Below the pieces are notes generated by a model that worked only from the letters and a program-made list of their open reading frames with translations, did no database searches and had not been told where the DNA came from. A program made the position numbers and the translations under genes. 64,000 bases of DNA. Origin: Anaerolineae bacterium. Its GTDB lineage: Bacteria > Chloroflexota > Anaerolineae > DRVO01. The stretch is from NCBI GenBank assembly GCA_040768685.1, contig JAXGMM010000001.1:553279-617278 (forward strand), written 5' to 3'. Positions 1,686 to 58,866 of this stretch are shown in pieces (positions within the stretch are counted from its first letter, which is position 1; the number at the start of each line of letters is the position of its first letter).

Positions 1686-2450
1686 TCAGCCGAGCAGCCA
1701 GAGGCTGAGCGCCATCAGAAACATCCCGGCCATTACCCCGAGGATGGGCAGGTGGCTATCGCACAGTGAGCAGGCCACCGGCACCAGTTCGTCCAGCGAG
1801 ATGAACACCATCACTCCCGCCACCCCGGCCAACACCACCCCGAGCAAAGCCGGGCTGAGGAACGGCATCAGGATCAGCGCCGTGAGAAGGGCGCCGAGCG
1901 GCTCGGACATGCCGGACACGAGTGACCATAGGAAGGCCTTGCGGCGGCTTCCGGTTGCGGCGTAGATCGGCCCGGAAACCGCCAGGCCCTCCGGTATGTT
2001 GTGGATGGCGACCGCGGTGGCGATCGCGAGGCCCAGCCTGGGGCTCTCCATGGCGCCGGCAAAGGTGGCCATCCCCTCGGGGAAGTTGTGGATCGCCACG
2101 CCCAGGGCGATGAACACGCCCGTGCGCAGGTAGGCGCCGTCGAGCCGCTCGCGTACCGCCGGCCTCTCTCCACCCAAGTACTGGTGCGGGATCAGCAGGT
2201 CTACCAGGAACATCAGCGCCATTCCGGCGAAGAAGGCGAAGTGGGCAGGCAGGAAGCCTATGGTGGCCACGCCGTGGGGCAGAAGCTCGGAGAAGGCGAC
2301 CAGGAGCATCACTCCGGCCGAGAAACCTAGAGTCAGGACCATGAACCGAGGACCGGGGTTCTTGACCGTGACGGCCAACAAGCTTCCGAGCACGGTGGAA
2401 AGACCGGCGATCGTAGCAAGCCCGAGCGCAACCAGCATCGGCTCAGTCAT
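1686..2450 (-). CDS. zupT: ZIP family zinc/metal transporter ZupT
   Basis: HNFPEGMA and HNIPEGLAV ZIP signature motifs, 8 TM helices; likely start MTEPMLVAL at 2450 forming ATGA overlap with upstream sulfatase stop. Confidence 0.85.
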   Translation of the reverse strand: MTEPMLVALGLATIAGLSTVLGSLLAVTVKNPGPRFMVLTLGFSAGVMLLVAFSELLPHGVATIGFLPAHFAFFAGMALMFLVDLLIPHQYLGGERPAVRERLDGAYLRTGVFIALGVAIHNFPEGMATFAGAMESPRLGLAIATAVAIHNIPEGLAVSGPIYAATGSRRKAFLWSLVSGMSEPLGALLTALILMPFLSPALLGVVLAGVAGVMVFISLDELVPVACSLCDSHLPILGVMAGMFLMALSLWLLG

Positions 2451-3829
2451 GGGCGGGTCAGTCCCTCCAGCAGTTGCCGGCGCGTCCACTCGTTGAGGAG
2501 TGGGTCGGCGGTCTCTTCCATCCATGCCGCCAGTCGGGTTCGGAGCGTGGCCGCCGTGTCGTCGAAGGCGGGTGCGGCAGCGAGGTTGTGTAGCTCGGGC
2601 GGGTCGTGGACGAGGTCGTAGAGTTCATCCTCGGCCGTGGCGTTCCAGATGTACTTCCAGCGCTCCGTCCTCACCATGCGCGAACTGTAAAGGCCGAACT
2701 GACTGCCGTGGTAGGTGGCGAAGGCCTCCGCCGACCGTGGCTGATGCTCGCCGCGGATGAGGGGAAGCAGGCTTCGGCCTTGGAAGGTCTCGGGCGACTC
2801 GACGCCGGCCGCCTCGCAGAAGGTAGCGGCCAGATCGAGCGCGTGCGAGACGAACGTATCGCAGGTCAGGCCGGCCTTCGCTCCCTCGGGCCAGCGCACG
2901 ATGAGGGGAACGTGCACCACGTCGTCGTACATGACGTGGTGCTTGTCCATCATGCCGTGTCCGCCGCAGAGGTCTCCGTGGTCGCAGGTGTAGATGACCA
3001 TCGTGTTGTGGGCGAGACCAAGGTCGTCCAGTTCCGCCAGGACGCGGGCGATCTGGGCGTCCATGAGCGTTATCTGCGCCAGGTAGCAGGCCACTACCGG
3101 AGCCCAGTCGCTCCACTGCCAGTGGTCCACGCCCCAGGTGCGTCGCATCTGCGCCTGGACGAACGGCTTGCCATGCAGGGGATCGGGGAAGCTGGGCCAG
3201 GGTTCGATCTGATCCGGCGGGTACAGGGAGAAGTACGGTTCGGGAACGACATTAGGCAGGTGCGGGCCGCTGGGGTCCCAGCGGATGAGGAACGGTGTTT
3301 TCTGCGCTGCGGCGGCGCGCAGCCGGTCGATAACGTGGCCTGCCTCCCAGCCGACCTGCGACTGCTCCGGGCCAACGTGGTGATCACGTCCGCCCAGCCA
3401 GCCGCCCTCGGTGGGAACCGGAGGAAGCCCCTGCGCCTCTCGCCACGCGCGGTAGCTCAACCCCGGCGTGTAGTCGTGGAAGCCGGCCTGCAATGGGTCG
3501 CCGGCGATGCCCCACTTGCCCACGTAGGAGAGGTGATAGCCCGCGCCGGCCAGCGCCTGGCTGAAGGTGGGCAGGCCATCCACGGCCGGCCGTCCCGCCT
3601 CGGTACCACGGTTGGCGATGGCGAGGTGGCGCGTAGGCCATACGCCGTACAGCAGGCTGTTGCGGGCGGGCGTGCAGACGGGGCTGGGAGTGAAGGCGTG
3701 GCGGAAGTTGACGCCCTCGGCGGCCAGGTGATCTAGGGTGGGCGTTTGCACGAGCGGGTGGCCGTTGGCACCGACGCAGTCGTACCGGTGCTGATCGGAG
3801 TGCACGAGAAGGATGTTGGGCCGGTCCAA
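2447..3829 (-). CDS. sulfatase (formylglycine-dependent; CTPAR motif present)
   Basis: NILLVHSDQHRYD metal site, PVCTPARNSLLYG CxPxR motif, YTCDHGDLCGGHG C-terminal sulfatase motif; ORF track start 4111 gives 94 junk residues, TTG 3829 with GGGGAGA SD more likely. Confidence 0.85.
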   Translation of the reverse strand: MDRPNILLVHSDQHRYDCVGANGHPLVQTPTLDHLAAEGVNFRHAFTPSPVCTPARNSLLYGVWPTRHLAIANRGTEAGRPAVDGLPTFSQALAGAGYHLSYVGKWGIAGDPLQAGFHDYTPGLSYRAWREAQGLPPVPTEGGWLGGRDHHVGPEQSQVGWEAGHVIDRLRAAAAQKTPFLIRWDPSGPHLPNVVPEPYFSLYPPDQIEPWPSFPDPLHGKPFVQAQMRRTWGVDHWQWSDWAPVVACYLAQITLMDAQIARVLAELDDLGLAHNTMVIYTCDHGDLCGGHGMMDKHHVMYDDVVHVPLIVRWPEGAKAGLTCDTFVSHALDLAATFCEAAGVESPETFQGRSLLPLIRGEHQPRSAEAFATYHGSQFGLYSSRMVRTERWKYIWNATAEDELYDLVHDPPELHNLAAAPAFDDTAATLRTRLAAWMEETADPLLNEWTRRQLLEGLTRP

Positions 3830-4152
3830 CCGGTCTGGTCTCCCCAGTTCGAAGTGACGGGCAGAGGAAGAATACGCAGAACCCGGCGGATGTCTAGGGC
3901 AACTAGCGTCACCGACGGCTGGCCCGCCGAGATTAGGCGATCCGTCGGTGCTTCTCTGCCGGGTCAGAGCGCCTGCCCGGCGTGGGCCGCGTGCGATTCG
4001 GCCGACACCGTTCTGGCCGCCTCCGCCGGAAGCGGATGCAGCCCTTGTCCAGCTGGATTCCCCGGACTGGTAGCGCCTCTCCGTGCCGGGCCGGCGCGCC
4101 GGCGTCAACACAGCGGCTCATGTAGTTCTTCTGGGAGGCGAAACCGGGACGG

Positions 4153-4950
4153 CTAGCGTGCACCCACGGCCTGGAGGCAGGCCTGCATGTGCCCGCGCGA
4201 CTCGGCGGCGATGATGCAGCACTGCTCCACCGGGTACTCTTTGGCCCCAATTATCTCGAGATCCAGGGGGCCGGTGTAGCCGTGCTTGTGGAGAACGCGG
4301 ATGTAGCCGACGAGGTCGATGTCGCCGCGGCCGTTGGCCTGCATCTCGGGCTTGCCCGGGTTCTGCTGGCGGCCCTTACAGTCGCGAATGTGGACGTGCT
4401 TGACGCGCGAGATCACGGCAGCGATGGCCTCCACCGGGTTCTCGCCGGCGCGGTGGATGTGCGAGGGGTCCATGTCGATGCCGAAGGCGGGCGAGTCGAT
4501 GTGCTCCATGAGGCGCAGAGTGCTAGGGGTGTTGTCGATGGCCGCCCCCACGTGGGCTTTCACACAGAGGGTGACACCGTACCTCTCAGCCATCCGCGAG
4601 AGCGAGGCCAGCGAATCGGCGCGCTCCTTGAAGCTCTCTTCGTCGCCCGTCTTGCCGCCGGGCCCGCAGTTGATGATGGGGATGCCGATCGCCACCGCTG
4701 CCTGGAACGCCGTTTCCATACGGACCGGGTCCTGAGAGGGCTGTTCCATGGCCAACAGCTCGAGCCCGTAGTCGCGCGAGAGGCGCTTGATCTCGGGAGC
4801 CAGTTCCTGCCAGCGGTCGAGCACCAGGTGCTCGCTCATTCCGTCGATGGCGGAGAGCTCGATGCCGTCATAGCCGGACATGGCGATGTACTTGAAGGCG
4901 GTCTCCATGTCGTGGCCGCCGAAGAGAACCGAATTGGCTCCTAGCTTCAT
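4153..4950 (-). CDS. sugar phosphate isomerase/epimerase (xylose isomerase-like TIM barrel)
   Basis: MKLGANSVLFGG...GYDGIELS N-terminus typical of AP_endonuc_2/xylose-isomerase-like TIM barrels; conserved His/Glu metal ligands. Confidence 0.8.
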   Translation of the reverse strand: MKLGANSVLFGGHDMETAFKYIAMSGYDGIELSAIDGMSEHLVLDRWQELAPEIKRLSRDYGLELLAMEQPSQDPVRMETAFQAAVAIGIPIINCGPGGKTGDEESFKERADSLASLSRMAERYGVTLCVKAHVGAAIDNTPSTLRLMEHIDSPAFGIDMDPSHIHRAGENPVEAIAAVISRVKHVHIRDCKGRQQNPGKPEMQANGRGDIDLVGYIRVLHKHGYTGPLDLEIIGAKEYPVEQCCIIAAESRGHMQACLQAVGAR

Positions 4951-4996
4951 GTTTTGCTCCTCATATGGTCGGTGTGGACCGTCCGGTCAATGACGG

Positions 4997-5404
4997 TCAC
5001 TCCGGCCTCAGCACCCGGACGGCGCCGGAGGCGCGGGCGAGCAGTTCGTCGTCCCAGGTGACGAGAGGCACATCGAGCTCCTTCGCTACGGCGACGTAGC
5101 AGGCATCCGCGCCACGGAGGCGCAAGTCGCCTGCCAACCTGGCGGCGAGGAGGCCCAACCGCTCATCAAGCCTGATCAGCTCGAGTTCGGGCAGTTCCAG
5201 CATCTCGGAAACGAGCATCTGCGCCAGCCATTGAGCGCATGAACGGCGTGAGACCGCGCCGGCTACCTCAGCGAGCAGAAGGCTGGGCCCATGGAGCGTC
5301 TGGTCGTGATCGGCGAACTGAGATCGCAGCCATCGCCGGCTGACCTCGTGATGCGCGTCGTCGGTCACGAAGTAGCCGACCCAGACGCTGGCGTCAACGA
5401 CCAT
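4997..5404 (-). CDS. vapC: PIN-domain toxin VapC
   Basis: MVVDASVWVGYF...D...E...D acidic PIN residues, 135 aa, 1-nt overlap with upstream antitoxin. Confidence 0.8.
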   Translation of the reverse strand: MVVDASVWVGYFVTDDAHHEVSRRWLRSQFADHDQTLHGPSLLLAEVAGAVSRRSCAQWLAQMLVSEMLELPELELIRLDERLGLLAARLAGDLRLRGADACYVAVAKELDVPLVTWDDELLARASGAVRVLRPE

Positions 5405-5667
5405 CAGAGCTCGCGCCGCTGCTCGCGGACGGCTTCAACAGCAGAAACTCCCTTAGGCCACACTGCGGAGACCTGCTTCGCCAGTTCGTCGAGTCGATCC
5501 CAAGCCTTCTGCGAGCGATCCCTCATTGCCTCCGGGGATTCCGGCGCCACGATCCGCGCTACTACCTCGCCTCTGTAGGTGATGTCGATCCCTTGGCCGT
5601 CCTCACGCACGCGGCGGATGATCTCGCTGGTGCGCTGCTTTAGTTCGCGTATCCCTACCGATTCCAT
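5404..5667 (-). CDS. Phd/YefM-type antitoxin (VapB partner)
   Basis: MESVGIRELKQRTSEIIRRV...ITYRGEVVARIV typical Phd/YefM N-terminus; start at internal ATG 5667 with GGAGG SD. Confidence 0.7.
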   Translation of the reverse strand: MESVGIRELKQRTSEIIRRVREDGQGIDITYRGEVVARIVAPESPEAMRDRSQKAWDRLDELAKQVSAVWPKGVSAVEAVREQRREL

Positions 5668-5744
5668 CGGTACGCCTCCGGGCCATTGTATCCACATATG
5701 TAGACACATTGTACCACGGGCCGGACTCGACCTGCTAGGCCGGT

Positions 5745-6737
<993 letters not shown>

Positions 6738-6850
6738 AGCGGACTCCTGATAGGTGACAAGGGATCAGTGGTTAGTGGTTAGTGGACAGTGGGGAGTGGC
6801 TAACAGCTTACTCTGCCGCCCACTGGCCACTGGTCACTATCCACTAGCCA

Positions 6851-7564
6851 CTACTCATAGCCGTAGTCGCGCATGGCCGGTTCGAGGAAGTCGAAGGTGT
6901 GCACGCCGGTGTCGGTGCGCCAGCGGCCTACCGCCTCGGGCCGCACCTTGATCTTGGCCAGGCGCATGCCCAGGTAGTCGCTCAAACGCTCGAGGGTCTC
7001 GTCCTGGCGGAGGACGAAGTCCTCGAAGCGGACGGTGATCCAGTTCTGCGGCTTGGGGGTCGTCCGTACCAGTAGGTCCTGGTAGAGCCAGGAGATCGCG
7101 CGCCGCCGGCGGATGTCATCGGTGAGCGGGTACTGGATGCCGAAGTCGCGCAGGTCGTCGGTCTTGTGCCCGGCCAGGATGCTGTCCCGCGGGTCGCGCA
7201 CCCAGAAGATGAACCTGGTCTCCGGCATGAGGCGGGCGATCCAAGGGAAGACGAGGGTAGTCTCGGGCAGCTTCCAGCCGCGGTTCTTGGCATCGCTGGC
7301 GAGGACGGAACGCAGGAAGACGCGCACCAGGTCGGTGAACTCCTTGGGGATGGCGCCGTCCAGGGCGCTCCAGTCCCAGGTGAGATCGCCGTTCCACTTT
7401 ACCTGGCGGGCGAGGACGTGGCAGGCATCGTACATGGCGAAGGGGGGCAGCAAGTCGCCGGAGCGATTCTGGGGTGCACCCATGTAGACGCCGCTGGCGG
7501 CGAGGGTATGCGACATGGCCCGGGTTCCCCCGTGCCCGCGCCCGATGACGGTGATCAGGCTCAT
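6851..7564 (-). CDS. PAPS-dependent sulfotransferase family protein (cytoplasmic)
   Basis: 5'-PSB loop VIGRGHGGTR near N-terminus and 3'-PB motif WVRDPRDSILAGH; no signal peptide. Confidence 0.7.
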   Translation of the reverse strand: MSLITVIGRGHGGTRAMSHTLAASGVYMGAPQNRSGDLLPPFAMYDACHVLARQVKWNGDLTWDWSALDGAIPKEFTDLVRVFLRSVLASDAKNRGWKLPETTLVFPWIARLMPETRFIFWVRDPRDSILAGHKTDDLRDFGIQYPLTDDIRRRRAISWLYQDLLVRTTPKPQNWITVRFEDFVLRQDETLERLSDYLGMRLAKIKVRPEAVGRWRTDTGVHTFDFLEPAMRDYGYE

Positions 7565-7685
7565 AGAGCAGTATCCTCAGACGGTGATGAGTGGATAGTG
7601 GACGGCGGCCAGCGGAGAGCCGAGCTCGCACGGGGGTGCGAACCCCTTGCGGAGAAACTCACCACTGGCCGCCGTCCACTGGTCA

Positions 7686-8696
7686 CTACAGCGTGACTAC
7701 CTCGCCGGTCTCCCAAGACTTGATGATGCCCTCAATGATGGTTTGGACGTGAAGGGCGTCCGCGCCGGAGGCATCGATCTGGTCGGGGGCGACGCCCTCG
7801 ACGTTCTGCTCGATCCAGCGGCCGATGCGGCTGCCGAACGTCTCGCCGAAGCTCATCATTCCGCCCACATAGTCGTAGGTGACAGTCTCACGGGAGAAGC
7901 GCGGGTAGAAGGTGAGGTGCTCGCAGGCGTCCACGAGGACAAAGCGCGCCTCGGAGCCCACCACCTCCAGTTCCTCGAGGCCATAGGAACCGCCGGCGTC
8001 GTAGGAGCCGGTGAGGTGGCCGAGGATGCCGTTCTTAAACAGCAGGTTCACCTGCACGTTGGACCAGCAGACGCGTCGGCCGCCGGGGCCGTCCTTGCGG
8101 GGGCCGCGCTTGAAGAAGGCCTGCACCTTCTCCACATCGCCGGCGTAGTAGCGCATCACGTCCAGCGAGTGGGGGTGGAGGGCGCGGATGTGGAACCAGG
8201 GCGAAGTCTCGTTGGGGTTGTTGATCCACATGCGCATGTTGACGATGTTGAGTTCGCCCAGCTTGCCTTTCTTGACCCACTGCTTGGCCATGAGGGCGGC
8301 GGGCGTGAAGCGGTGGTTGAGGTTGATGCCGTAGCGCAGCCCCTTGGCCTTCGCCAAGGCGACCATCTCGCGCGCCTCGTCCAGGTTGTTGGAGATGGGC
8401 TTCTCGCCCAGTACGGGGATGCCGGCGCCCAGCAACTGCATGGTGGGCTGGTAGTGGTCGCCGCCGTTCTCCTTACCCGCAGTGGTGACGCTGGCGGCGT
8501 CGATCTTCAGGCCGCCGGCGAGCATGTCGTCGACCGAGTAGAAGGCGCGGGCGCCGTACTTCTCGGCGGCGCGGTCGGCCTTCTCCTTGATGAGGTCGCA
8601 CACGGCGACGATCTCGGCGTCGGGGTGCTTCTGGTAGACGCCCGCGTGCGTATTGCCGATGTTGCCCATCCCTACGATGGCTACCTTCAGTGCCAT
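7686..8696 (-). CDS. Gfo/Idh/MocA family NAD(P)-dependent oxidoreductase
   Basis: MALKVAIVGMGNIGNTHAGVY Rossmann N-terminus; shares GEKPISN, LNHRFTPAA, SPWFxIxALHPH, LTGSYD blocks with 5745-6737; AGGAGAGG SD before ATG 8696. Confidence 0.85.
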   Translation of the reverse strand: MALKVAIVGMGNIGNTHAGVYQKHPDAEIVAVCDLIKEKADRAAEKYGARAFYSVDDMLAGGLKIDAASVTTAGKENGGDHYQPTMQLLGAGIPVLGEKPISNNLDEAREMVALAKAKGLRYGINLNHRFTPAALMAKQWVKKGKLGELNIVNMRMWINNPNETSPWFHIRALHPHSLDVMRYYAGDVEKVQAFFKRGPRKDGPGGRRVCWSNVQVNLLFKNGILGHLTGSYDAGGSYGLEELEVVGSEARFVLVDACEHLTFYPRFSRETVTYDYVGGMMSFGETFGSRIGRWIEQNVEGVAPDQIDASGADALHVQTIIEGIIKSWETGEVVTL

Positions 8697-8736
8697 TTCA
8701 TCCTCTCCTGATGACCTCTGAGAACCTCACCCCCTC

Positions 8737-8835
8737 GATACTCCGCTGTGCGGAGTATCTGTACCCCTCTCCGACACGGAGAGGGGTTCCGGAGCCCCCT
8801 TCCCGGCGCGGGAAGGGGGTTGGGGGTTAGGTCAC
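8737..8835. repeat. GC-rich triple-hairpin repeat element (copy A)
   Basis: three consecutive perfect hairpins GATACTCCGC-tgtg-CGGAGTATC, CCCCTCTCC-gacac-GGAGAGGGG, CCCCCTTCCC-ggcgc-GGGAAGGGGG followed by TTGGGGGTTAGGTCA; same core recurs at 33115, 36538, 41471. Confidence 0.6.
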
Positions 8836-10235
8836 TTTCTCGCCTCGGCCTGCAACTTGATGGCGGTCTGGATGCCGCCGATGTACAGCGTGTCGTAGGC
8901 CTGCTGCGACGTCTTGAAAGGGCCGACGCCTTCCTTCCCGTGCCAGTCGCCCTGGTGGTACATGGGGTTGGGCAGGCCCGTCTCGGCCTCGCGCTTGGCA
9001 ATGTAGGCGTGCATGCGCGCGCTCAGCGTCGCCACCATCTCCGGCTCGCTCTCGGCCAGGTTATGGTTCTCGCCCGGGTCCTGGATCAGGTTGTAGAGCT
9101 CCACCGGCGGCTTGAAGTGGAAGTCGGGCTCCAGCGCTTCTATCAGCTTCCATTCCGGGGTGCGCCAACCATGCTTGCGCATCCAGGTGCACTCGGTTAG
9201 GTAGATCTCGCTCTCGAAGGAGGGCGCCTCGCCGCGCACCAACTGCATGAGGCTCGGCCCATCCATCTGGTAGTCGCCCGGGTCGATCTCGGCCAGCTCG
9301 AGGATGGTGGGCAGCAGGTTCTTGTGCTGGTTGTAGCCGGGAACGCGCAGCCCCGCCGGCACCTTGCTCGGGTAGCGGATGATCAGCGGCACGTGCAGGG
9401 TGTTGTCGTAGATGCCGTGGTGATCAAAGTAGCAGTCGTGGTCGTAGAGCGTCTCGCCGTGATCGGAGTTGATGACCACGATGGTGTCGTCCAGGACGCC
9501 CAGGTCCTCCAGTTGGTGGAAGATGGTCTGGATACAGGCGTCCATGTAGGCCACCGAGCCGTCGTACTGGGCGATGATGTAGTCCTTGTCGGTGATTCCG
9601 GGCGGCATCCAGGAGGCGAAGAAGTCGCGGAAGGGCTTGAAGGCCATCACCGGGTCCATGGAACGGTTGTCCGGGTTGGTCTCGTTGCCGTGGTAGAAGG
9701 CCCGCTCGTAGGGGGGCGGCGGCAGGTAGGGAGAGTGCGGGTCCATGTGGCGCAGGAAGAGGAAGAAGGGCTTGCGCGACTTGGCCAGCCGGTCCAGCTC
9801 CGGCACGGCGACGTCGTTGAGGTTCTGCGCCTTGGGGCTGCGACCGTCGGCCCAGGAGCCCCAGCCGGGGAAGTCGATGTACTTGGCGAAGTCGCGCGCC
9901 GCCGCGTTGCCCTTGAAGCCGACGGAGGTGGTGTTGTAGCCGGCCTCGTTGCAGAACTGGGCCAGCGTCTTGGCCTCGGAGCGCATGGGGCCCTTGTGCC
10001 GCAGCGCCACCACCTGGGTGCCGAAGGCGTCGCGCCCGGTGAACATGCCGGCGTAGCCGCTGGTGGTGGGGATGTGAGGGCTGTAGGTGCGCTCAAACAG
10101 GGTTCCCCCCTGGGCGAAGCGGTCGATGTGGGGAGTGGTGAGGCGAGGGTAACCGTAGCACGACATGTGATCGGCCCGCAGGGAGTCGATCCCGAAAAGG
10201 AGAATGTTCGGTCTCCGACGGCGTCTCGGTGGCAT
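8832..10235 (-). CDS. sulfatase-like (alkaline phosphatase superfamily) hydrolase/transferase lacking the CxPxR motif
   Basis: NILLFGIDSLRADH and TPHIDRFAQGG align to sulfatase N-terminus but FGly position reads IPTTSGY (Thr-Thr instead of Cys-x-Pro); no signal peptide; SD GGAGG before ATG 10235. Confidence 0.8.
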   Translation of the reverse strand: MPPRRRRRPNILLFGIDSLRADHMSCYGYPRLTTPHIDRFAQGGTLFERTYSPHIPTTSGYAGMFTGRDAFGTQVVALRHKGPMRSEAKTLAQFCNEAGYNTTSVGFKGNAAARDFAKYIDFPGWGSWADGRSPKAQNLNDVAVPELDRLAKSRKPFFLFLRHMDPHSPYLPPPPYERAFYHGNETNPDNRSMDPVMAFKPFRDFFASWMPPGITDKDYIIAQYDGSVAYMDACIQTIFHQLEDLGVLDDTIVVINSDHGETLYDHDCYFDHHGIYDNTLHVPLIIRYPSKVPAGLRVPGYNQHKNLLPTILELAEIDPGDYQMDGPSLMQLVRGEAPSFESEIYLTECTWMRKHGWRTPEWKLIEALEPDFHFKPPVELYNLIQDPGENHNLAESEPEMVATLSARMHAYIAKREAETGLPNPMYHQGDWHGKEGVGPFKTSQQAYDTLYIGGIQTAIKLQAEARK

Positions 10236-10269
10236 GTGACCTCCAGGGTACGGTCGAGCTGGTGGGGCG

Positions 10270-10298
10270 ATTGTACTACCGCGGCGCGAGGGTGACTA
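10270..10298 (-). promoter_or_regulatory. candidate sigma70-type promoter of the sulfatase-like/Gfo operon
   Basis: minus strand reads TAGTCA-17nt-TACAAT about 30 nt upstream of ATG 10235. Confidence 0.35.
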
Positions 10299-10584
10299 GC
10301 GCGGCGTCTCCTATGGCGAGCAGTTGGTGTATGACATCGAGCGCCTGAAGCGCCACTTCCCGGCGGTACCGATCAAGGTCATCCTTGTCGACGCGGACTG
10401 AAGCAGGAACTAGCGATTCCTGACGTCCTACTTGACTCACGCAACAACGCCGGGACGCCAAGCAACACTCCCTTGGCGTCTCTGCGTCTTGGCGTGAGCC
10501 GTCCCCTCTCCTCCCCTTGATGCGCCGCCCCTTCACCGCTATCCTTCCTCCCGACCAAACCTGCCTGCTCGGGAGGCTTTCCCC

Positions 10585-11379
10585 ATGAGACCGAACCGGC
10601 TGCGTGAACTGCTGGACCAGGACCGGCCCAGCATCGGCACCCACGTCCAGTGCACCTGGCCCGCCATCGTCGAGCTCATCGGCCAGACGGGCATGTACGA
10701 CTACGTGGAACTGGTGGGCGAGTACGCACCTTACGATCTCTACTCCCTGGACAACTTCGGCCGCGCCGTGGACCTCTTCCCCAACTTCAGCGCTATGTTC
10801 AAGGTGGACCAGGAGCCCCGCGGCTACCTGGCGCAGAGGGCCATGGGCGCCGGAATCCAGAACCTCCTCTTCGCCGACATCCGCACGGTCGAGGACGCGC
10901 GCCGGTGCGTAAGCATCGTCCGGGCGGAGTCGCCGCAGACGGGCGGCATCCACGGGGTGCATATGCGCCGGTCGGTGGGGTACGTCCGGGACGTGGGCAA
11001 CGCCGCCTTCGTGCAGTCCCTGGAGGACGCCGTCGTCGCCCTCATGATTGAGAAGAAGGCGGCGGTGGAGAACCTGGAGGAGATACTCGAGGTGAAGGGC
11101 GTGGACATGGTGCAGTTCGGCCCCGCCGACTACTCCATGAGTCTGGGGATCCCCGGCCAGTGGAGCGATCCGCGGGTGTGGGAGGCGCAGAAGTTGACCA
11201 TCGAGACGGCGCTGAAGATGGGCGTGGCGCCGCGCGCGGAGATCGGCTCCGTGGACCAGGCCAAGCGCTTCTTGGACCTGGGCGTGAAGCACTTCTGCAT
11301 CGGCACCGATGTGGTGATCCTGTCGCAGTGGTGGAAGCAGACCGGCGATGACCTGCGCAAGCTGGTCGAGACCGCCTAA
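10585..11379 (+). CDS. HpcH/HpaI family 2-keto-3-deoxy-sugar acid aldolase
   Basis: N-terminus MRPNRLRELLDQDRPSIGTHV and size 264 aa typical of HpcH/HpaI class II aldolases (KDR/KDGlucarate aldolase-like). Confidence 0.8.
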   Translation: MRPNRLRELLDQDRPSIGTHVQCTWPAIVELIGQTGMYDYVELVGEYAPYDLYSLDNFGRAVDLFPNFSAMFKVDQEPRGYLAQRAMGAGIQNLLFADIRTVEDARRCVSIVRAESPQTGGIHGVHMRRSVGYVRDVGNAAFVQSLEDAVVALMIEKKAAVENLEEILEVKGVDMVQFGPADYSMSLGIPGQWSDPRVWEAQKLTIETALKMGVAPRAEIGSVDQAKRFLDLGVKHFCIGTDVVILSQWWKQTGDDLRKLVETA

Positions 11380-11394
11380 GAAGAGGGAGACTAT

Positions 11395-12186
11395 ATGGAC
11401 ATCAACCGCGTATCCTGCTGCTCGTACCCCATGCGCGCCCTGCCGCCGGAGCACTCCTTCCGCGCCCTCAGCGAGGCGGGGTACAAGAAGATCGACCTCT
11501 GGGGCGGCATGCCGCACTTCGACGTGAACAACCCCGAGTATGACTTCGACGCCGTGCTCGCTCTGTCGGAGAAGTACGGCGTGCGGATCGGCAACATCGG
11601 CTCCTACTGCGGCGCGGGCTTCACCAGTGAGGACGAGGCCGAGCGCGAAGCCGAAGTGGTGAAGACGACGAAGGTGCTGGACGCGGCTGCCCGCGCCGGC
11701 GCCCGTTCCGTGCGCAGCGTCCTGGGCCGGCCGGAGTCGCCGGAGCATCTGGCGCGCGTTCTACCCTACTACCAGCGCGTTGCCGAGTACGCTGAGAAGG
11801 TGGGCGTGTACATGGGGGTGGAGAACCACGGCGGCCCGTGCAGCGGCAATCCGCAATTGCTTGCCTGGTTCTTCGACAAGGTGGGCAGTAAGTACACCGG
11901 CGTCCTCTACGAGCCCTGCAACCTGATGTCGGCCGGGGTGGACTACAAGCAGGCCTTCGAGACGATGAAGGACTACATCACCCACATGCACATCAAAGAC
12001 TGCTACCCCATCAACGGCAAGATGCAGACGGTGTGGCTGGGAACCGGCATCATCGACTATCGCTGGGTGGTGGCGGCGCTGGAGGGTGCCGGCTACACCG
12101 GCGACTACCCGATCGAGTACGAGGTAGACGACGAGCCGCCGGAGCAGGGCATCGGCAAGTGGCTCGACATGTGGATGAAGATCTGA
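11395..12186 (+). CDS. sugar phosphate isomerase/epimerase (xylose isomerase-like TIM barrel)
   Basis: AGYKKIDLWGG...VENHGG...HMHIKD motifs of AP_endonuc_2 family; 16 nt after aldolase stop. Confidence 0.8.
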   Translation: MDINRVSCCSYPMRALPPEHSFRALSEAGYKKIDLWGGMPHFDVNNPEYDFDAVLALSEKYGVRIGNIGSYCGAGFTSEDEAEREAEVVKTTKVLDAAARAGARSVRSVLGRPESPEHLARVLPYYQRVAEYAEKVGVYMGVENHGGPCSGNPQLLAWFFDKVGSKYTGVLYEPCNLMSAGVDYKQAFETMKDYITHMHIKDCYPINGKMQTVWLGTGIIDYRWVVAALEGAGYTGDYPIEYEVDDEPPEQGIGKWLDMWMKI

Positions 12187-12261
12187 CCTGACCCGGCTGG
12201 CTCGTCACGCCAAGGGGCCGGCCCGGGTGGCCCCGACGAACCATCCGCATCGCCTCGGTAG

Positions 12262-12292
12262 GGGAGGGCCTCCGCGCCCTCCCTTGTTTTGT
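12262..12292 (+). terminator. rho-independent terminator
   Basis: GGGAGGGC-ctccgc-GCCCTCCC stem followed by TTGTTTTGT. Confidence 0.6.
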
Positions 12293-12355
12293 CGCAAACA
12301 TGCCTGTCTCAGCATGGTCAAAAGTGCGTGCTTGCCGTTTGCCTCAGGTATGCCA

Positions 12356-12385
12356 TTGACGGGTGTATACCGGCGCGCTTATGCT
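12356..12385 (+). promoter_or_regulatory. candidate sigma70 promoter for ABC transporter operon
   Basis: TTGACG-17nt-TTATGC(T) in a locally AT-richer stretch about 255 nt upstream of ATG 12641. Confidence 0.35.
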
Positions 12386-12640
12386 AGCACTATGCAGAGG
12401 CCTTGGCCGAGCGGCAATGCTGTTTGGCCCTCTTGGCTTGGACATTTCGGCTCGGCTACGCATGGTGCACTCTGCGTCCCGCCGCCAGGTGGGCTCTACG
12501 GCCGAGCCGGTCCCCTGCCCGTCTCACAGAGGAGGTGAATAAGCCCGGCGCGAGGGGAAGAGGAGTTGGGGGGGTCAAGAGGCGATCCGTAGCAGAGCGA
12601 TCAGCGCTGTAGCTTCGTTCATGCAAGGGGGCAGCAAGAG

Positions 12641-14629
12641 ATGAGTAGACCATTCACCCGACGTGACTTCCTGAACCTGGTAGCCTTGGGTAGCGCAGGA
12701 GCATTGGCGTCGTGTGCTCCGGCTACGCCTGGGGCAGTTGCAGGCGTGCCGGAGACGGCCGCGCCTGAAGCCGTCACCACCTTGGGGTTCCCCCGTGCCG
12801 AGACCGTCTTCGCCCAACAGTTGACGGGACGCAATGCCACTCCCAGCAACTTTAATTCTTGGGCCGGCTGGCGGCAGCGGGACCGCGGCATGCAGCAGGT
12901 CATGCACGAGCAACTATGGATCGACGACTTCGAGCGAGGCGAACTCATCGACGCGCTGGCCGTTGCCCCGCCGGAGTACAGCGACGACTTCAAGACGATG
13001 ACCTTCCAGATCCGCGAGGGCGTGTACTGGAGCGACGGCGTCGAGCTCACCGCTGAGGACGTTGCGTTCACCATCGACTTCACCCGGTTGGCTTCCGGCG
13101 CGTCGTTCAACGCCAGCGTGGCGGCGCAGGTCGAGAGTGTCGAGGCGACAGACGGCCAAACGGTGGTGGTTCAGCTCAAGGAGCCGAACCCGCGTTTTCA
13201 CTTTGAGAACCTTTGCGACCTGTGGGGCAGCCTGTGGGTGATGCCGAAGCATGTGTTCGGGCAGTTCCTGAAGGATGGCGAGGTTGACACGGAGGGCTTC
13301 TTTGCCTTCGAGTACAATCCTCCCCTCAGCAGCGGGCCCTACAAGCTGCACAGCTTCGATCCGGCCGGCAATTGGACGGCGTGGGAGAAGCGCGAGGATT
13401 GGCAACGCACACCTACCGGGATGCTCTTCGGCGAGCCCAAGCCGAAGTACGTGGTGTTCGTGGACTATGGCGACTTCACGGCCCGCGTCATCGCCATGAC
13501 TCGGCACGAGGTCGATCAGGTCGACCTTGACTTGCCTGCCATCAGAGCCGCCACCAAGGCGGAACCGACCGCCCGCGGCTACTATGCCGATCAGGGGTTC
13601 CCCTGGCTGCAGTCCAACCGCCACCCGGGCGTCGGTGGGACGGTGTTCAATACCCTCAAGCCTCCGTTCGATAACCCGGACGTCCGCTGGGCACTTGCCC
13701 TGGCCATTGAGCCGGTCTCCTACAGCACGACGGCGTACGACGGGTGTGCCGCCATGAACCCGCTGCCCATCGTCGTCAACGCCCCGCAGATGCAGGAGCC
13801 CTTCATCAAGCCACTTATGGCGTGGCTGGAGGACTTGACCATCGATGTAGGCGGCGGGGAGATGGTCAACGTGTGGGACCCCACGGCGCCGATGCGATTG
13901 GTGGAGGATGCGCGGGAGCGAGGCTTCGAGTTCCCGGATGACCCGGACCTGATTAGGTCGGCGTTCGGCTATGGCTCGTGGCAGTACAACCCCGATGCGG
14001 CCACCAAGCTGCTCAAGAAGGCGGGCCTACAGCAGGACGCCGACGGCAAGTGGCTCCTAGCGGACGGCACGCCCTGGCAGTTCAGCGTCTACACGGACAC
14101 CATCCCCGGTCGCTGGTCCTACCAGAACGCGCAGGCAGCGTACGTGGAGTGGCAGCGGTTTGGGCTGGATGTGAGGTTCGAGGTAGGCGACGCCGGTCAG
14201 CTGCGGATCGAGCACGGCAACTTCGACGTCTGCGGCGCCCAGACGCACGGCAGCAACTACCTGGAGAACCCCGATCTCTTCAGAACGTTCACTGCCTTCC
14301 ACTCGTCGTATCTGCAGCCGGTTCTCGGCGAACGCCAGTGGGGCCATCCCTCACGCTGGACGGACAGCACGGTGGATGCGCTGCTCGACGAGATCCGGGT
14401 AACAAACCCGATCGACCTCGAAACGCTGCAGCCACTGGGTCTGGAACTGCTCAAGACCTGGATAATGGCCATGCCTGCCATCTCGGGCACTACTTCGCTG
14501 GACCCGTATGCGGTCTCGAGCTACTACTGGACCGGCTGGCCGAGTGCTGAGGATCACTTCATAGTGCCTTACCATCACTATCCGAACTTCAAGTACCTCC
14601 TCACCTTCCTGAAGCCGGCAGCCGGCTAA
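12641..14629 (+). CDS. ABC transporter substrate-binding protein, family 5 (peptide/oligosaccharide), Tat signal lipoprotein
   Basis: MSRPFTRRDFLNLVALGSAGALASC twin-arginine motif plus lipobox Cys; length 662 aa typical SBP_bac_5. Confidence 0.85.
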   Translation: MSRPFTRRDFLNLVALGSAGALASCAPATPGAVAGVPETAAPEAVTTLGFPRAETVFAQQLTGRNATPSNFNSWAGWRQRDRGMQQVMHEQLWIDDFERGELIDALAVAPPEYSDDFKTMTFQIREGVYWSDGVELTAEDVAFTIDFTRLASGASFNASVAAQVESVEATDGQTVVVQLKEPNPRFHFENLCDLWGSLWVMPKHVFGQFLKDGEVDTEGFFAFEYNPPLSSGPYKLHSFDPAGNWTAWEKREDWQRTPTGMLFGEPKPKYVVFVDYGDFTARVIAMTRHEVDQVDLDLPAIRAATKAEPTARGYYADQGFPWLQSNRHPGVGGTVFNTLKPPFDNPDVRWALALAIEPVSYSTTAYDGCAAMNPLPIVVNAPQMQEPFIKPLMAWLEDLTIDVGGGEMVNVWDPTAPMRLVEDARERGFEFPDDPDLIRSAFGYGSWQYNPDAATKLLKKAGLQQDADGKWLLADGTPWQFSVYTDTIPGRWSYQNAQAAYVEWQRFGLDVRFEVGDAGQLRIEHGNFDVCGAQTHGSNYLENPDLFRTFTAFHSSYLQPVLGERQWGHPSRWTDSTVDALLDEIRVTNPIDLETLQPLGLELLKTWIMAMPAISGTTSLDPYAVSSYYWTGWPSAEDHFIVPYHHYPNFKYLLTFLKPAAG

Positions 14630-14647
14630 CATAGCCGCACAAGAGCG

Positions 14648-14684
14648 CCCGCGAGCAAGCCGTAGTGCCTGCTCGCGGGTTGCC
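14648..14684 (+). promoter_or_regulatory. intercistronic stem-loop between SBP and permease genes
   Basis: CCCGCGAGCA-12nt loop-TGCTCGCGGG perfect 10-bp stem then TTGCC; typical partial terminator/mRNA stabiliser placement. Confidence 0.4.
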
Positions 14685-14709
14685 ATGGACAACGCAGTCT
14701 GGGGGAAGA

Positions 14710-15717
14710 ATGAGATTCGTGAGGCGCTACCTGATCCCGCGGTTGATCCAATACGTGGGGGTGACTGTCCTCGGGATCACCATGATCTTCATGCTGCCTA
14801 GGCTTATGCCCGTAGGCCCGGTGGAGAAAGCGGTCGCGCAGGTGATGGCTCGAGGCACCTACTCCGACCCCAAGGCGGCCGAAGAGACGGTACGGGCGCT
14901 CCGCGAGATGTACGGATTGGACCAAGGGCTGCTGCAGCAGTACCTGGGGTTCTGGCGCCGGTTGTTCACAGCTGATTTCGGGCCGTCGCTGGTGGCGTTT
15001 CCCGCTCCGGTGAATGACCTCATAGCTGCCTCTCTTCCGTGGACGATGGGTCTGCTGTTCACGACGACGGTGCTGGTGTTCATCATCGGCAACCTCACCG
15101 GCGGATTGGCGGGGTTCTTCAGTCGGAGTCGGACCATGCAGGTTGTGGACGCGATGGCCATGGTCCTGGCTCCGATGCCGTACTACATTGTCGCCCTCAT
15201 GTTGATCATCTTGTTCGCGCATATCCTGCCCGTCTTTCCTGTGGGTGGCGCCTACACCATCGGCGCCAGGATCGAGCTCTCTCGGGGTTTCGTGATCGAC
15301 GTTCTGCGGCATGCGTTCCTTCCGGCCGTGTCTCTCGTGGTCCTCGGCGTGGCCACTACCCATCAGGTGATGCGGCTTATTGTGCAGGGCGTCCGAGAGG
15401 AGGACTACGTTCGCTATGCTCAGATCGCCGGCGTGAACCGCTGGACGATCTTCACACGCTACGTGATGCGGAACGCCATGCTGCCTCAGATCACGCGTTT
15501 TGCCCTGGGCTTCGCATCTTTGTTTAGCGGTGCACTGATCACCGAGATCGTCTTCGCTTATCCTGGAGTGGGCCTGCTCACCTACAAAGCCATCCTCTCA
15601 TCGGACTACAACGTGCTCATGGGCGTCACAACCTTGTCGATCGTGGCCCTGACGACCAGCACCCTGATCATGGACCTTCTGAACCCGCTCTTCGATCCGC
15701 GGATCAGGTTGACGTGA
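14710..15717 (+). CDS. ABC transporter permease (DppB/OppB type)
   Basis: BPD_transp_1 EAA-like loop, 6 TM; start at internal ATG 14710 (MRFVRRYLIPRL) preceded by GGGGGAAG. Confidence 0.85.
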   Translation: MRFVRRYLIPRLIQYVGVTVLGITMIFMLPRLMPVGPVEKAVAQVMARGTYSDPKAAEETVRALREMYGLDQGLLQQYLGFWRRLFTADFGPSLVAFPAPVNDLIAASLPWTMGLLFTTTVLVFIIGNLTGGLAGFFSRSRTMQVVDAMAMVLAPMPYYIVALMLIILFAHILPVFPVGGAYTIGARIELSRGFVIDVLRHAFLPAVSLVVLGVATTHQVMRLIVQGVREEDYVRYAQIAGVNRWTIFTRYVMRNAMLPQITRFALGFASLFSGALITEIVFAYPGVGLLTYKAILSSDYNVLMGVTTLSIVALTTSTLIMDLLNPLFDPRIRLT

Positions 15718-15733
15718 GAGGAGAGCGTCTCAG

Positions 15734-16588
15734 ATGAAGACACTAAGGGCCTTCTTCAGGGACCGGCGTTTCAGCATCGGCGCGGCACTGATGGCGGGGC
15801 TGCTCTTCCTGGCCTGTCTCTCGTTTCTGTCACCCTACAACCCGACCGTCTGGCGAGTTGTGCCTCGTGACCTCGCGCCTTCATCGGCGCACTTGCTGGG
15901 GACTACTTCCCTGGGCCAGGACGTGTTCTGGCAGCTCACCGCCGCCATACGCAACTCGCTGCTCCTGGCTGTCTTCTCGGCGATGATATCGAGGTTAATC
16001 GCCCTCTTCGTAGGGCTGGTGGCCGGCTACGTCGGTGGGATGGTGGACCGGGCGCTGATGTTTATCAGCGACGGTTTCATAGTGCTGCCTCTGCTGTTGG
16101 TGCTCGTGATGCTGGCGATCCTCATTCAGGAGCAACTGAGCCTACTAACCATGGGGTTGCTCTTCGCGCTGTTTGGGTGGGCGCTAGACGCTCGGTTCAT
16201 ACGCTCGCAGATACTCAGCCTCAGGGAGAGGGAGTTCACGTACACCGCTATCCTCTCAGGCACCCCCCCACTCAGGCTGATCTTCAACGAGTATCTCCTC
16301 TTCGTGGTGCCACTGACGACAGCGACGCTCATCGGGAACATGATCTGGGTGACCGGTATGGAAGTCACTCTGGCCTACCTGGGCCTGACGGACATTGCCG
16401 TCCCTACACTAGGCACCATGCTGCACTTCGCCCTCAACTACCAGGCGGTGCTGCTGGGGCTGTGGTGGTGGATCTTCACCCCTATCGGAGCGGCTGTGGT
16501 GCTTTTCGTCGCGCTGTACCTTCTGTCGATCAGCATCAGCGAGTACCTTGATCCACGGGCCCGCATCCAGCGAGTGGGCGGGAGATAG
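15734..16588 (+). CDS. ABC transporter permease (DppC/OppC type)
   Basis: N-terminal OppC-like region, BPD transporter signature, 284 aa. Confidence 0.85.
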   Translation: MKTLRAFFRDRRFSIGAALMAGLLFLACLSFLSPYNPTVWRVVPRDLAPSSAHLLGTTSLGQDVFWQLTAAIRNSLLLAVFSAMISRLIALFVGLVAGYVGGMVDRALMFISDGFIVLPLLLVLVMLAILIQEQLSLLTMGLLFALFGWALDARFIRSQILSLREREFTYTAILSGTPPLRLIFNEYLLFVVPLTTATLIGNMIWVTGMEVTLAYLGLTDIAVPTLGTMLHFALNYQAVLLGLWWWIFTPIGAAVVLFVALYLLSISISEYLDPRARIQRVGGR

Positions 16589-16597
16589 GGGCGGGCC

Positions 16598-17599
16598 ATG
16601 TGGGTGATCAAGGCAGAGAGGTTAGAGGCATCGTACTTCCTGGACATGCTGGGAACCAGGAGGGTCGTAACAGCGGTCAACGGTGTCGATCTGGAGGTCC
16701 GGGCAAACGAGATCTATGGGATAGCGGGGGAGAGTGGCTGCGGCAAGACGACTCTGGTCAAGACACTGCTCGGGGATGTCCAGCCGCCGCTGCGAGTGGT
16801 CGGCGGCAAGGTGCACTACCGCGTCGATGGAGAGGATCTCGATCTGTATTCGCTGAAGCCGGAGCTGCGACAGCGGCTTCGTTGGTCGTTCATCTCCTAC
16901 GTGCCCCAGAGTTCAATGAGCAATCTCAACCCGGTGGCCAAGCTGAAGGGCTCCTTCAGGGACTTCCTGAGAAGCCACGTGGGGCGTCGCGATGGTGGAG
17001 AGCTGCTGGAAAAGGCACGACAGCACCTGATGCACCTTGGGCTGCCCCCGAACGTGCTGGAGGCCTATCCGCACCAGTTATCAGGGGGCATGCGCCAGCG
17101 GGTGGTGATCGCTCTGGCTACTGTGCTCTCGCCTCGCGCTGTGGTCACCGACGAGCCGGTTACGGCTCTGGACGTGGTCGTTCAGCGGGGTGTGCTTCAG
17201 CTTCTACGGGAGGTGCAGCAGGAGCAGCAGAACGCCTTGGTGATGGTCACTCATGACATGGGGGTGCTGGCCAACATCGCCGATCGCGTCGGGATCATGT
17301 ACGCTGGGAGGATCATAGAGGAAGCGCTCGTCGAGGCCATCTTCAGGCAGCCACGACACCCGTATACCCAGTACCTGATCAACTCCTTACCCAAGTTCGG
17401 GGACAAGACGATGCGGGAAAGCGCCCCCGGGGCGCCTCCGTCTCTGGCCGATCTTCCCAAGGGATGCCCCTTCCATCCTCGCTGTCGGTACGCCATGGAC
17501 ATGTGCAGGGAGGCTGTGCCGCCCTCCGTGACCATCGCCGATCAGCATAGGGTGTCCTGTTGGCTGACCCAGGAGGGAGACGATAGACGCCATTCTTGA
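16598..17599 (+). CDS. ABC transporter ATP-binding protein (DppD/OppD type)
   Basis: Walker [20 protein letters not shown] signature, C-terminal oligopeptide ABC extension with Cys-rich [14 protein letters not shown]. Confidence 0.85.
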
Positions 17600-17627
17600 G
17601 GTCCAGAACGTAAGCAGAATCTTCCAC

Positions 17628-18566: not shown

Positions 18567-18749
18567 GTCAGAAGGGCGGGCATTAGCACAGCGGGACGAA
18601 TGCACCGCCCGCTCCACAGCAGGCGTCTCTGCGACAGGCGCAGGGCGGCCGCTCTGGCGGCGGTCGGGCGCAGATCGCGATGCGCGGTCCCGTCTGTGTT
18701 TGTAGCCAGAGACACTAGGGCACGGGGAGCCAATTCCGGGAGGGATTGC

Positions 18750-21110: not shown

Positions 21111-21196
21111 TCGGTCTCTCCCGCCGGGCGGATGGTCGCAGTGTATGCCGGCGGGGGTTCCGTGCCAACGGAAGCGGTCTTGGGCGACGAGGCCGC

Positions 21197-22315: not shown

Positions 22316-22342
22316 GCGGTCTCCCGAGGGCTGCCGTTCGCT

Positions 22343-24064: not shown

Positions 24065-24233
24065 CAAGAACGCGGCTCCCTTAACCATCGGGTCTGTACG
24101 GATTCATGAGGCAACGGGCGTCATTCTATGGGCCGTTCCCGGCAACGGCAAAGCCCGGCCCCTCTTGATTCGGCGTGACGGTCCGGCTACACTCGACTCC
24201 AACGATGATGAATGATCAACTGAGGGCCGAGCC

Positions 24234-55145: not shown

Positions 55146-55166
55146 GGGCAAGGGACGGCGTCGGGC

Positions 55167-55303: not shown

Positions 55304-55327
55304 AATGAGTATGCAGGCTTCCAGCGG

Positions 55328-55356
55328 TTGACATGTCCGGTGATCCGATGCATAAC
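55328..55356 (+). promoter_or_regulatory. candidate promoter downstream of the direct repeats
   Basis: TTGACA-17nt-CATAAC; weak -10. Confidence 0.3.
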
Positions 55357-58832: not shown

Positions 58833-58866
58833 CGCGTGGCCGGCCGCAGGCCACATCTGCCAGCGT

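Follow-up and report, generated by a model that had tools for sequence, protein, structure and literature searches.

The described systems that most resemble the locus studied here are redox-elimination pathways, in which a Gfo/Idh/MocA-family oxidase, an eliminase with a triose-phosphate isomerase (TIM) barrel and a Gfo/Idh/MocA-family reductase are encoded in one operon. Precedents are the levoglucosan pathway LgdA/B/C, with its Gfo/TIM/Gfo arrangement (PMC7676230), the systems for β-elimination of O- and C-glycosides, which have the same Gfo/TIM pairing (PMC10628242), and the Bacteroides BT2156-2160 cluster together with related gut clusters, one of which cleaves 6-SO4 and 6-PO4 glycosides (bioRxiv 10.1101/2024.03.25.586180). 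Here we analyse a locus of an Anaerolineae bacterium (Chloroflexota) that lies in a 64,000-nucleotide stretch of contig JAXGMM010000001.1, which we call the window and to which all window coordinates refer. The functional unit of this locus is a five-gene cytoplasmic cassette, SulfT-Gfo2-ST-Gfo1-TIM1, encoded at 4153-10235. The cassette has the architecture of the redox-elimination systems and shares with them at least two Gfo/Idh/MocA proteins and one AP_endonuc_2 TIM barrel in a cytoplasmic operon beside a sugar importer. It differs from them in that it has both a sulfotransferase and a sulfatase-fold protein, whereas no described redox-elimination system has either.

A conserved five-gene cassette

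The cassette is encoded on the minus strand and begins with SulfT (8832-10235; Pfam Sulfatase PF00884, 174 bits, lacking the CxPxR motif), which is followed by Gfo2 (7686-8696), the sulfotransferase ST (6851-7564; Pfam Sulfotransfer_3, 237 residues, of the 3′-phosphoadenosine 5′-phosphosulfate (PAPS) type), Gfo1 (5745-6737) and the xylose-isomerase-like TIM barrel TIM1 (4153-4950; AP_endonuc_2, Pfam 101.7 bits). The two Gfo proteins match GFO_IDH_MocA in both Pfam and NCBIfam. The first four genes are separated by 113-135 nucleotides, and the full order on this strand is SulfT, Gfo2, ST, Gfo1, a Phd/YefM-PIN pair, TIM1, a second sulfatase (SulfC) and ZupT. A preliminary description of the 10.5-kb stretch 1686-12186 had named these genes, and they were found at the places and on the strands that it gave, with their families confirmed by Pfam and NCBIfam. 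Direct reading of the N-termini also bore out its view that the chemistry is cytoplasmic, as no enzyme of the locus has a signal peptide; only the solute-binding protein of the neighboring importer has one, with a twin-arginine and a lipobox motif. The proteins of the cassette are all small and soluble.

Conservation of the locus was assessed in two scans, one of one genome per species of the Genome Taxonomy Database (GTDB), seeded with an alignment of ST homologs and returning 80 loci, and an independent one of metagenome contigs seeded with SulfT. The comparison covered 160 related loci (designated by L and a number), and the window proteins were compared with all loci of the first scan. The core block is kept at 60–80% amino acid identity across at least seven phyla, with carriers in Chloroflexota, Verrucomicrobiota, Planctomycetota, Armatimonadota, Lentisphaerae, KSB1, Trueperaceae (Deinococcota) and one metagenome-assembled genome (MAG) of Bauldia (Alphaproteobacteria). 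Most Chloroflexota have the gene order of the window, and a permuted order, Gfo-TIM-Gfo-SulfT-ST-Gfo1, was found in Verrucomicrobiota, Planctomycetota, Lentisphaerae and Kiritimatiellia. Of the 42 genome loci from the ST-seeded scan in which ST is flanked by 5 kb or more in both directions, 34 have SulfT, 33 a second Gfo, 32 TIM1 and 30 Gfo1; of the 18 SulfT-seeded metagenome loci, 16 have a second Gfo, 15 TIM1, 14 Gfo1 and 10 ST. Recurrence of the same order in dozens of genomes of many phyla excludes chance juxtaposition of the core genes. Pairwise distances of four cassette proteins are also correlated (r = 0.49–0.58, 24 loci), as expected if the genes are inherited or transferred as one unit. 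The thousands of homologs at 60–80% identity mark a strongly constrained, horizontally mobile cassette, which is carried by Chloroflexota of cyanobacterial-mat type and also by the phyla that are the main glycan degraders in lakes, sediments and sponges.

ST is missing from the vicinity of approximately half of the SulfT/Gfo/TIM cassettes. Since compact examples exist among these (in L108, SulfT-Gfo2-Gfo1-TIM1), only SulfT, the Gfo enzymes and TIM1 make up the invariant core, and ST is a very frequent accessory. No gene consistently replaces ST (for example, a kinase) in the ST-less cassettes, whose neighbors include a beta-lactamase-family protein, PhyH, GH16 and a sigma factor, among others. 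A beta-lactamase-family (PF00144) serine hydrolase is found between SulfT (or ST) and Gfo1 in L009 (10724-11962) and L097 (6485-7702), where it marks one sub-type of the cassette irrespective of whether ST is present. In L039, L060 and L063, from Trueperaceae and Bauldia, the order is SulfT-Gfo2-ST-TIM1 without Gfo1, and one Gfo may be sufficient in some hosts.

The conserved unit is thus smaller than the 10.5-kb stretch that had been proposed to act as one pathway. The expectation that its genes would be conserved neighbors held for SulfT, ST, the Gfo proteins and TIM1, but not for the HpcH aldolase, the second TIM barrel (TIM2), VapBC or ZupT, and a formylglycine-type sulfatase is an occasional neighbor (3/42 ST-seeded and 4/18 SulfT-seeded loci, about 10–20%). 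A search of a plasmid collection returned only 31%-identical sulfotransferases in Cereibacter and no cultured or annotated carrier. In the full-text literature, with most subscription papers outside the scope of the search, no description of the cassette or of a threonine-type cytoplasmic S1 relative was found, in line with the earlier remark that this combination of genes is not a described pathway.

SulfT, the sulfotransferase and the oxidoreductases

SulfT is a descendant of carbohydrate sulfatases with a remodeled active site. Its best sequence matches in the PDB belong to the phosphonate-monoester hydrolase/arylsulfatase group, and its top 50 Foldseek matches are all S1 sulfatases or phosphonate-monoester hydrolases, with the qualification that the AlphaFold query model is weak (pLDDT 68, active-site loops disordered). 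SulfT has kept the sulfatase fold, and its metal-binding residues (D17, D258 and H259) and general acid (H167) are conserved and invariant. However, the CxPxR motif is replaced by P-T-T-S-G-Y, with Thr57 at the position of the cysteine that is converted to formylglycine. In an alignment to SulfC (29% identity), T57 corresponds to that Cys, Y61 to the motif Arg, and F107 and D271 to the two sulfate-binding lysines (those of "GKW" and "DKHH", respectively); T57-T-S-G-Y61 aligns likewise with the motif of 4uph and 7oz8. Thr57, Tyr61, D17, D258 and H259 are invariant in 49 SulfT orthologs, as are the replacements of both lysines, and His163 and Asp165 are extra invariant residues besides Asp271. 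Because the formylglycine Cys, the motif Arg and both sulfate-binding lysines are replaced, and these changes are fixed in 49 orthologs, SulfT is not a canonical sulfatase, and the label of sulfated-glycoside processing given to the locus earlier was too specific. The absence of CxPxR from SulfT and its presence in SulfC had been read correctly. Public annotation labels SulfT "sulfatase" or "arylsulfatase A-like" and ST "sulfotransferase"; since SulfT-type proteins carry the sulfatase annotation, a SulfT that works without formylglycine would have a bearing on the interpretation of sulfatase counts from metagenomes.

The assignment of ST, which has 3193 homologs, is firmer. Its AlphaFold model (pLDDT 93.8) has the sulfotransferase fold, and the 46 best Foldseek matches are all sulfotransferases (TM-score ~0.5–0.6), led by the tyrosylprotein sulfotransferases TPST1/2 and followed by 3-OST, the CurM sulfotransferase and Stf0. 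Two invariant motifs, I-G-R-G-H-x-G-T-R (residues 7–15) and R-D-P-R-D (residues 123–127), align with the PAPS-binding elements of TPST, the latter with its R-D-G-R-A-S region, so that both the 5′-phosphosulfate loop and the 3′-phosphate motif are represented. In five loci (L010, L046, L065, L078 and L084), genes for adenosine 5′-phosphosulfate (APS) kinase, CysD and CysN(C) lie downstream of the cassette, contiguous with it and on the same strand, which we interpret as a dedicated PAPS supply and which lends indirect support to PAPS as the probable donor. In L084 (12790-17268), the block that adjoins the downstream end of the cassette opens with a gene for a URO-D-like protein, followed by those for APS kinase, CysD and CysN(C). 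ST is taken to run in the forward direction because adjoining PAPS genes feed a PAPS-consuming sulfotransferase in characterized clusters, as in the Bacteroides Bt_0416 cluster (PMC9417993). These PAPS-synthesis genes indicate that sulfate is added as well as removed, a second respect in which the sulfated-glycoside label was too narrow.

ST and SulfT are fused in one open reading frame (ORF) of 741–775 codons in four loci (L018:1019-3307, L042:2268-4538, L109:28-2253 and L121:409-2736). The contigs that carry these fusions are unrelated, several of the fusions lie away from any Gfo or TIM gene, and their neighbors encode NUDIX, GNAT, TetR or PhyH proteins or an ATP-binding cassette (ABC) exporter. 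PhyH-like Fe(II)/2-oxoglutarate dioxygenases stand beside ST or SulfT in three unrelated loci (L035:5177-7060, L157:9425-10306 and L121:3441-4214).

ST orthologs were also found apart from the cassette. In L061 (10001-12090) and L079, a cassette-less ortholog (63% identity) is followed immediately by a GH4 glycosidase. GH4 is an NAD-dependent family of redox-elimination glycosidases that usually needs a substrate 6-phosphate, and the pairing hints that a sulfate might take the role of that phosphate. In two Victivallales MAGs (L058:9956-20586 and L062:5732-16191), an ortholog with 61% identity heads an efflux operon that encodes a major facilitator superfamily transporter, an outer-membrane efflux protein (OEP), an adaptor of the HlyD type and ABC exporters. 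SulfT, Gfo and TIM genes are absent there, and the layout is one of sulfation and export.

Gfo1 and Gfo2 are paralogs with 51% identity. GxGxxG and EKP motifs were read in Gfo2, whose orthologs (63–81% identity) keep their position; in other loci its slot is occupied by a different type of Gfo protein (GfoV1). Gfo1 orthologs mostly have 69–83% identity (mean pairwise identity 0.74), and Gfo1 lies directly downstream of ST in the ST-bearing cassettes with the window order. TIM1 orthologs (70–84% identity) also keep their position, and TIM1 is presumed to be an isomerase, eliminase or dehydratase. Its NCBIfam matches to IolE, hydroxypyruvate isomerase and epimerase models are weak and far below the cut-offs; a search of the PDB gave distant matches only for TIM1 and no close entry for it or for Gfo1. 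With the models for BT_2158, BT_2159 and levoglucosan dehydrogenase (cut-offs 650–750), the Gfo proteins reach scores of 30–62 bits, and the match to DgpA (E = 2e-14) covers the NAD domain only. Because these scores are so far below the cut-offs, the window Gfo proteins are not orthologs of BT_2158, BT_2159, LgdA or DgpA.

Genes around the cassette

SulfC (2447-3829, minus strand) is a canonical cytoplasmic sulfatase of the formylglycine type with an intact CTPAR motif, and matches Pfam Sulfatase (142 bits) and SGSH_C. The open frame was called to 4111, but the true start is the TTG at 3829, as called in the closest relative, giving a protein of 460 residues. Orthologs with 50–61% identity, all with CxPxR and all without a signal peptide, lie beside the cassette in five further lineages (L004, L016, L099, L151/L152 and L157); SulfC is a recurrent accessory and not part of the core. 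The metal importer gene ZupT (1686-2450, called to 2525; minus strand) scored 294 bits against an NCBIfam equivalog cut-off of 252. Its start is at 2450, where the ATG overlaps the SulfC stop in ATGA (2447-2450), an arrangement that suggests translational coupling of this metal importer with the metal-dependent sulfatase SulfC. The presence of ZupT beside the cassette is lineage-specific, with one distant match elsewhere (L080).

Two other elements were noted in the lineage of the window, whose nearest relatives are Anaerolineae MAGs (region GC ~65%). The VapB antitoxin (5404-5709 as called, with a start probably at 5667; Phd/YefM, PhdYeFM 39 bits) and the VapC toxin (4997-5404; PIN, 59 bits), both on the minus strand, overlap by one base in the usual arrangement of a PIN toxin after a small antitoxin. 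They form an insertion that interrupts the otherwise conserved operon between Gfo1 and TIM1. The window shares it with close relatives (L081-L083, L090 and L091; 84–87% identity), and it is absent from the other loci compared; the pair is not part of the pathway. A relic of a DUF1801 gene remains at 4035-4145 on the minus strand (tblastn: 37 residues, 68% identity); the gene is intact in the closest relative (L081, 13875-14243), between TIM1 and the formylglycine sulfatase.

Upstream of SulfT, a divergent intergenic region of 349 bp (10236-10584) holds one minus-strand promoter-like match, at 10298-10270 (a consensus match only). The scan for terminators and promoters was uninformative, with three terminator-like sites against 4.4 expected. 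On its other side, the plus strand encodes the HpcH/HpaI-family aldolase HpcH (10585-11379; Pfam HpcH_HpaI, 62 bits, which reaches the threshold) and TIM2 (11395-12186; AP_endonuc_2). These two genes are not the whole operon, which continues past 12186 to 19820 with a SBP_bac_5 solute-binding lipoprotein, two permeases, two ATPases and a URO-D-like protein (12641-19820; assigned by Pfam). HpcH and TIM2 are the first two genes of this neighboring ABC-importer operon and not conserved partners of the cassette: HpcH is beside the cassette in none of the distant loci, and TIM2 has one weak match there (24% identity, L118). In the closest relative L081, whose ST is 86% identical, HpcH and TIM2 stay with the solute-binding protein (SBP) gene, and ~4 kb of unrelated genes (kinase, AHSA1) lies between them and SulfT. 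HpcH scored 75–99 bits against aldolase equivalogs (HpaI, GarL and 2-keto-3-deoxy-L-rhamnonate aldolase) with cut-offs of 369–441.

The SBP of the window resembles cellobiose-, laminarin- and mannoside-binding proteins of Thermotoga, and the importer is predicted on that basis to be of the oligosaccharide type. Importers of the SBP5 type are divergent from the cassette in approximately ten other loci and in the same operon as it in L088 (SBP at 3290-5257), and the cassette-linked SBP is similar to SBPs for sugars and oligouronides. Regulators of the LacI and AraC types and a RhaM-like mutarotase are found repeatedly near the cassette, and L-rhamnose utilization genes (RhaA, FGGY kinase, class II aldolase and rhamnosidases) lie near some cassettes. 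A Pfam census of 127 same-strand flanking ORFs gave weak recurrences of FGGY (4), SDR (3), RhaA (2) and aldolase_II (2), which is suggestive of rhamnose use but not decisive. URO-D-like genes are found beside the cassette in L004, L032, L078, L084, L110, L115, L118, L145, L161 and L164.

Elsewhere in the window, a second group of related genes comprises a URO-D-family protein (54090-55145), a Gfo/Idh/MocA protein (55422-56414), a phosphofructokinase-family protein (56411-57397) and a SBP_bac_5 protein (59110-61086) within 54090-61086. A full-length comparison of this SBP_bac_5 protein with the SBP linked to the cassette in L088 gave 32% identity. Gfo genes and SBP5 importers are recurrently accompanied by URO-D-like proteins. 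At 19965-24088 on the minus strand are tandem amidohydrolase genes (19965-21110 and 21197-22315, 60% identical) and a further SBP_bac_5 gene (22343-24088).

Proposed function and comparison with known systems

We tentatively favor a reading, plausible though short of probable, in which the cassette is a cytoplasmic pathway that oxidizes a sugar, rearranges it or eliminates from it, and reduces the product, by way of a sugar (or glycoside) sulfate ester. We infer that the ester is a sulfate and not a phosphate because three families of sulfate-ester enzymes (ST, SulfT and SulfC) co-localize repeatedly. In the order that seems most reasonable to us, the sugar would first be imported, in many cases through an SBP5-type ABC transporter encoded next to the cassette, and would either arrive sulfated or be O-sulfated in the cytoplasm by ST with PAPS. 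One Gfo protein would then oxidize a ring hydroxyl to a ketone, and the TIM barrel would act by way of the acidified α-proton, in an isomerization, a β-elimination or a hydration, after which the second Gfo would reduce the product. SulfT, with threonine in place of formylglycine, would remove or move the sulfate through a sulfo-threonine intermediate, and in the lineage of the window SulfC may handle an additional or alternative sulfate. Such a model accounts for the universality of SulfT, the optional ST, the PAPS genes and the recurrent formylglycine sulfatase. The sole lead to the substrate points to a 6-deoxyhexose such as L-rhamnose, or its glycoside. If the model is true, SulfT would be the first characterized cytoplasmic descendant of S1 sulfatases that works without formylglycine.

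Several points weigh against this proposal. The model does not account for the cost of PAPS (2 ATP + GTP) for a catabolic intermediate that is later desulfated, which has no precedent, or for the fusion of ST to SulfT, which would be futile if SulfT simply hydrolyzed the ST product. PAPS-synthesis genes are absent from the window, approximately half of the cassettes carry no nearby ST, and the window SBP is not orthologous to the cassette-linked SBPs of other loci (32% identity). In addition, an active site that has lost formylglycine, the Arg and both lysines and has gained H163, D165 and D271 resembles a phosphoryl-transfer site more than that of a sulfatase.

The fusion argues that SulfT acts productively on the product of ST. 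On this is based a more specific possibility, which we regard as doubtful, that SulfT is no hydrolase but a sulfuryl-transfer enzyme (a sulfomutase or trans-sulfatase) acting through sulfo-Thr57, and that the cassette uses sulfate as lower glycolysis uses a phosphate ester. The sulfate would be so positioned that oxidation by Gfo and the action of the TIM barrel make it an activated leaving group. Potentially, the outcome would be a formylglycine-independent, non-hydrolytic desulfation or deoxygenation; alternatively, an enol- or keto-sulfate with high transfer potential might be formed, from which ST could regenerate PAPS by running in reverse. ST would supply the sulfated sugar or prime SulfT, either of which would explain the four independent ST-SulfT fusions.

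It is rather unlikely that SulfT instead serves the nucleotide side of the ST reaction, as a phosphatase of 3′-phosphoadenosine 5′-phosphate (PAP) or a PAPS/APS hydrolase which would remove the inhibitory by-product and free the cassette from dependence on the host where CysQ is lacking. In support, a Thr nucleophile is a usual feature of the phosphoryl-transfer members of the alkaline-phosphatase superfamily, the sulfate-binding lysine pair has been lost, the extra His and Asp could form a second metal site, and ST is fused to or adjoins SulfT. Nucleotide hydrolases also occur beside ST, of the NUDIX family in L018, L035 and L042 and MazG in L085 and L086. The reading was downgraded because the SulfT-seeded scan gave many SulfT/Gfo/TIM cassettes without ST, among them L096, L097, L100, L108, L110, L145, L155, L160, L164 and L167, in which SulfT is equally conserved (70–76%). 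The linkage of SulfT to Gfo and TIM is tighter than that to ST, and in sequence and structure it is closest to carbohydrate sulfatases and phosphonate-monoester hydrolases rather than to nucleotidases.

The dedicated PAPS supply, the ST orthologs that head efflux operons in L058 and L062 and the ABC exporter after the fusion in L121 would also suit a biosynthetic cassette, which converts an imported or endogenous sugar to a sulfated small molecule (a compatible solute, a signal or a detoxified aglycone) that is kept or exported. We consider this improbable. As approximately half of the SulfT-seeded cassettes do without ST, the core cannot exist for the sake of sulfation; its surroundings usually comprise importers, regulators of the LacI/AraC types, a mutarotase and catabolic genes, and neither a glycosyltransferase nor an exporter was found beside the core cassette. 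There is similarly little to commend a single sulfated-glycoside pathway across the whole of 1686-12186, with desulfation by the sulfatases, cleavage by Gfo and TIM through a 3-keto intermediate, and splitting of a 2-keto-3-deoxy acid by HpcH. In its favor, the window and close relatives have these genes side by side, HpcH shows a similarity to 2-keto-3-deoxy-L-rhamnonate and -glucarate aldolases that stays below threshold, and rhamnose genes lie near cassettes elsewhere. However, the distribution of HpcH and TIM2 described above and the lineage-specific occurrence of VapBC and ZupT are against it, and the PAPS sulfotransferase would be left without a role. Least probable, and quite remote, is a cyclitol (inositol-type) module with Gfo proteins like IolG/IolW/IolX, a TIM1 like IolI/IolE and a SulfT that hydrolyzes an inositol phosphate, phosphodiester or sulfate. 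Among NCBIfam models, IolG ranks first or second for the two Gfo proteins and IolE first for TIM1, IolE and IolI are among the few PDB matches of TIM1, and the inositol-isomer architecture also comprises two to four Gfo genes and one TIM barrel, but the scores (IolG, 106 and 95 bits with a cut-off of 355; IolE, 46 bits with a cut-off of 290) are far under the equivalog cut-offs and place the proteins outside the inositol families, no IolB, IolC or IolD was among the 25 commonest families of the flanking ORFs, and the RhaM-type mutarotase implies a reducing sugar.

The two proteins that set the cassette apart from other redox-elimination systems each have a described counterpart elsewhere. SulfT shares its fold, its metal ligands and its best matches with the S1 sulfatases (SulfAtlas S1_16, S1_19, S1_11 and others) and the phosphonate-monoester hydrolases (4uph, 2vqr), of which family SulfC is a regular member with CTPAR. 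It differs from them in having Thr for Cys/Ser, Tyr for Arg, and Phe and Asp for the lysines, all invariant in its orthologs, and in being cytoplasmic. Phosphopentomutase DeoB and cofactor-independent phosphoglycerate mutase are cytoplasmic mutases with a Thr/Ser nucleophile and a covalent ester-group intermediate, and phosphopentomutase is primed by a bis-phosphorylated sugar. Priming of this kind could serve as a model for the fusion of a sulfotransferase to SulfT, although no specific sequence relationship to these mutases is detectable and SulfT is nested among sulfatases; a mutase activity of SulfT would, at this stage, be pure hypothesis by analogy.

NodH with NodPQ and RaxST with RaxPQ are sulfotransferases clustered with dedicated PAPS synthesis. 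The adjoining APS kinase, CysD and CysN genes in five loci give ST a likeness to these and to the cholesterol sulfotransferase of Bt_0411-0416. However, the output of the known clusters is a sulfated end product (a sterol, a Nod factor or a peptide), whereas ST sits between sugar oxidoreductases, is paired with or fused to SulfT and is dispensable in approximately half of the cassettes. PAPS-dependent sulfation inside a sugar-utilization operon is part of no described carbohydrate pathway. There is a modest chance that the cassette represents something categorically new; compared with the systems known so far, it is a new combination, in which the layout of a redox-elimination sugar pathway is joined to a PAPS-sulfotransferase module and a remodeled sulfatase.

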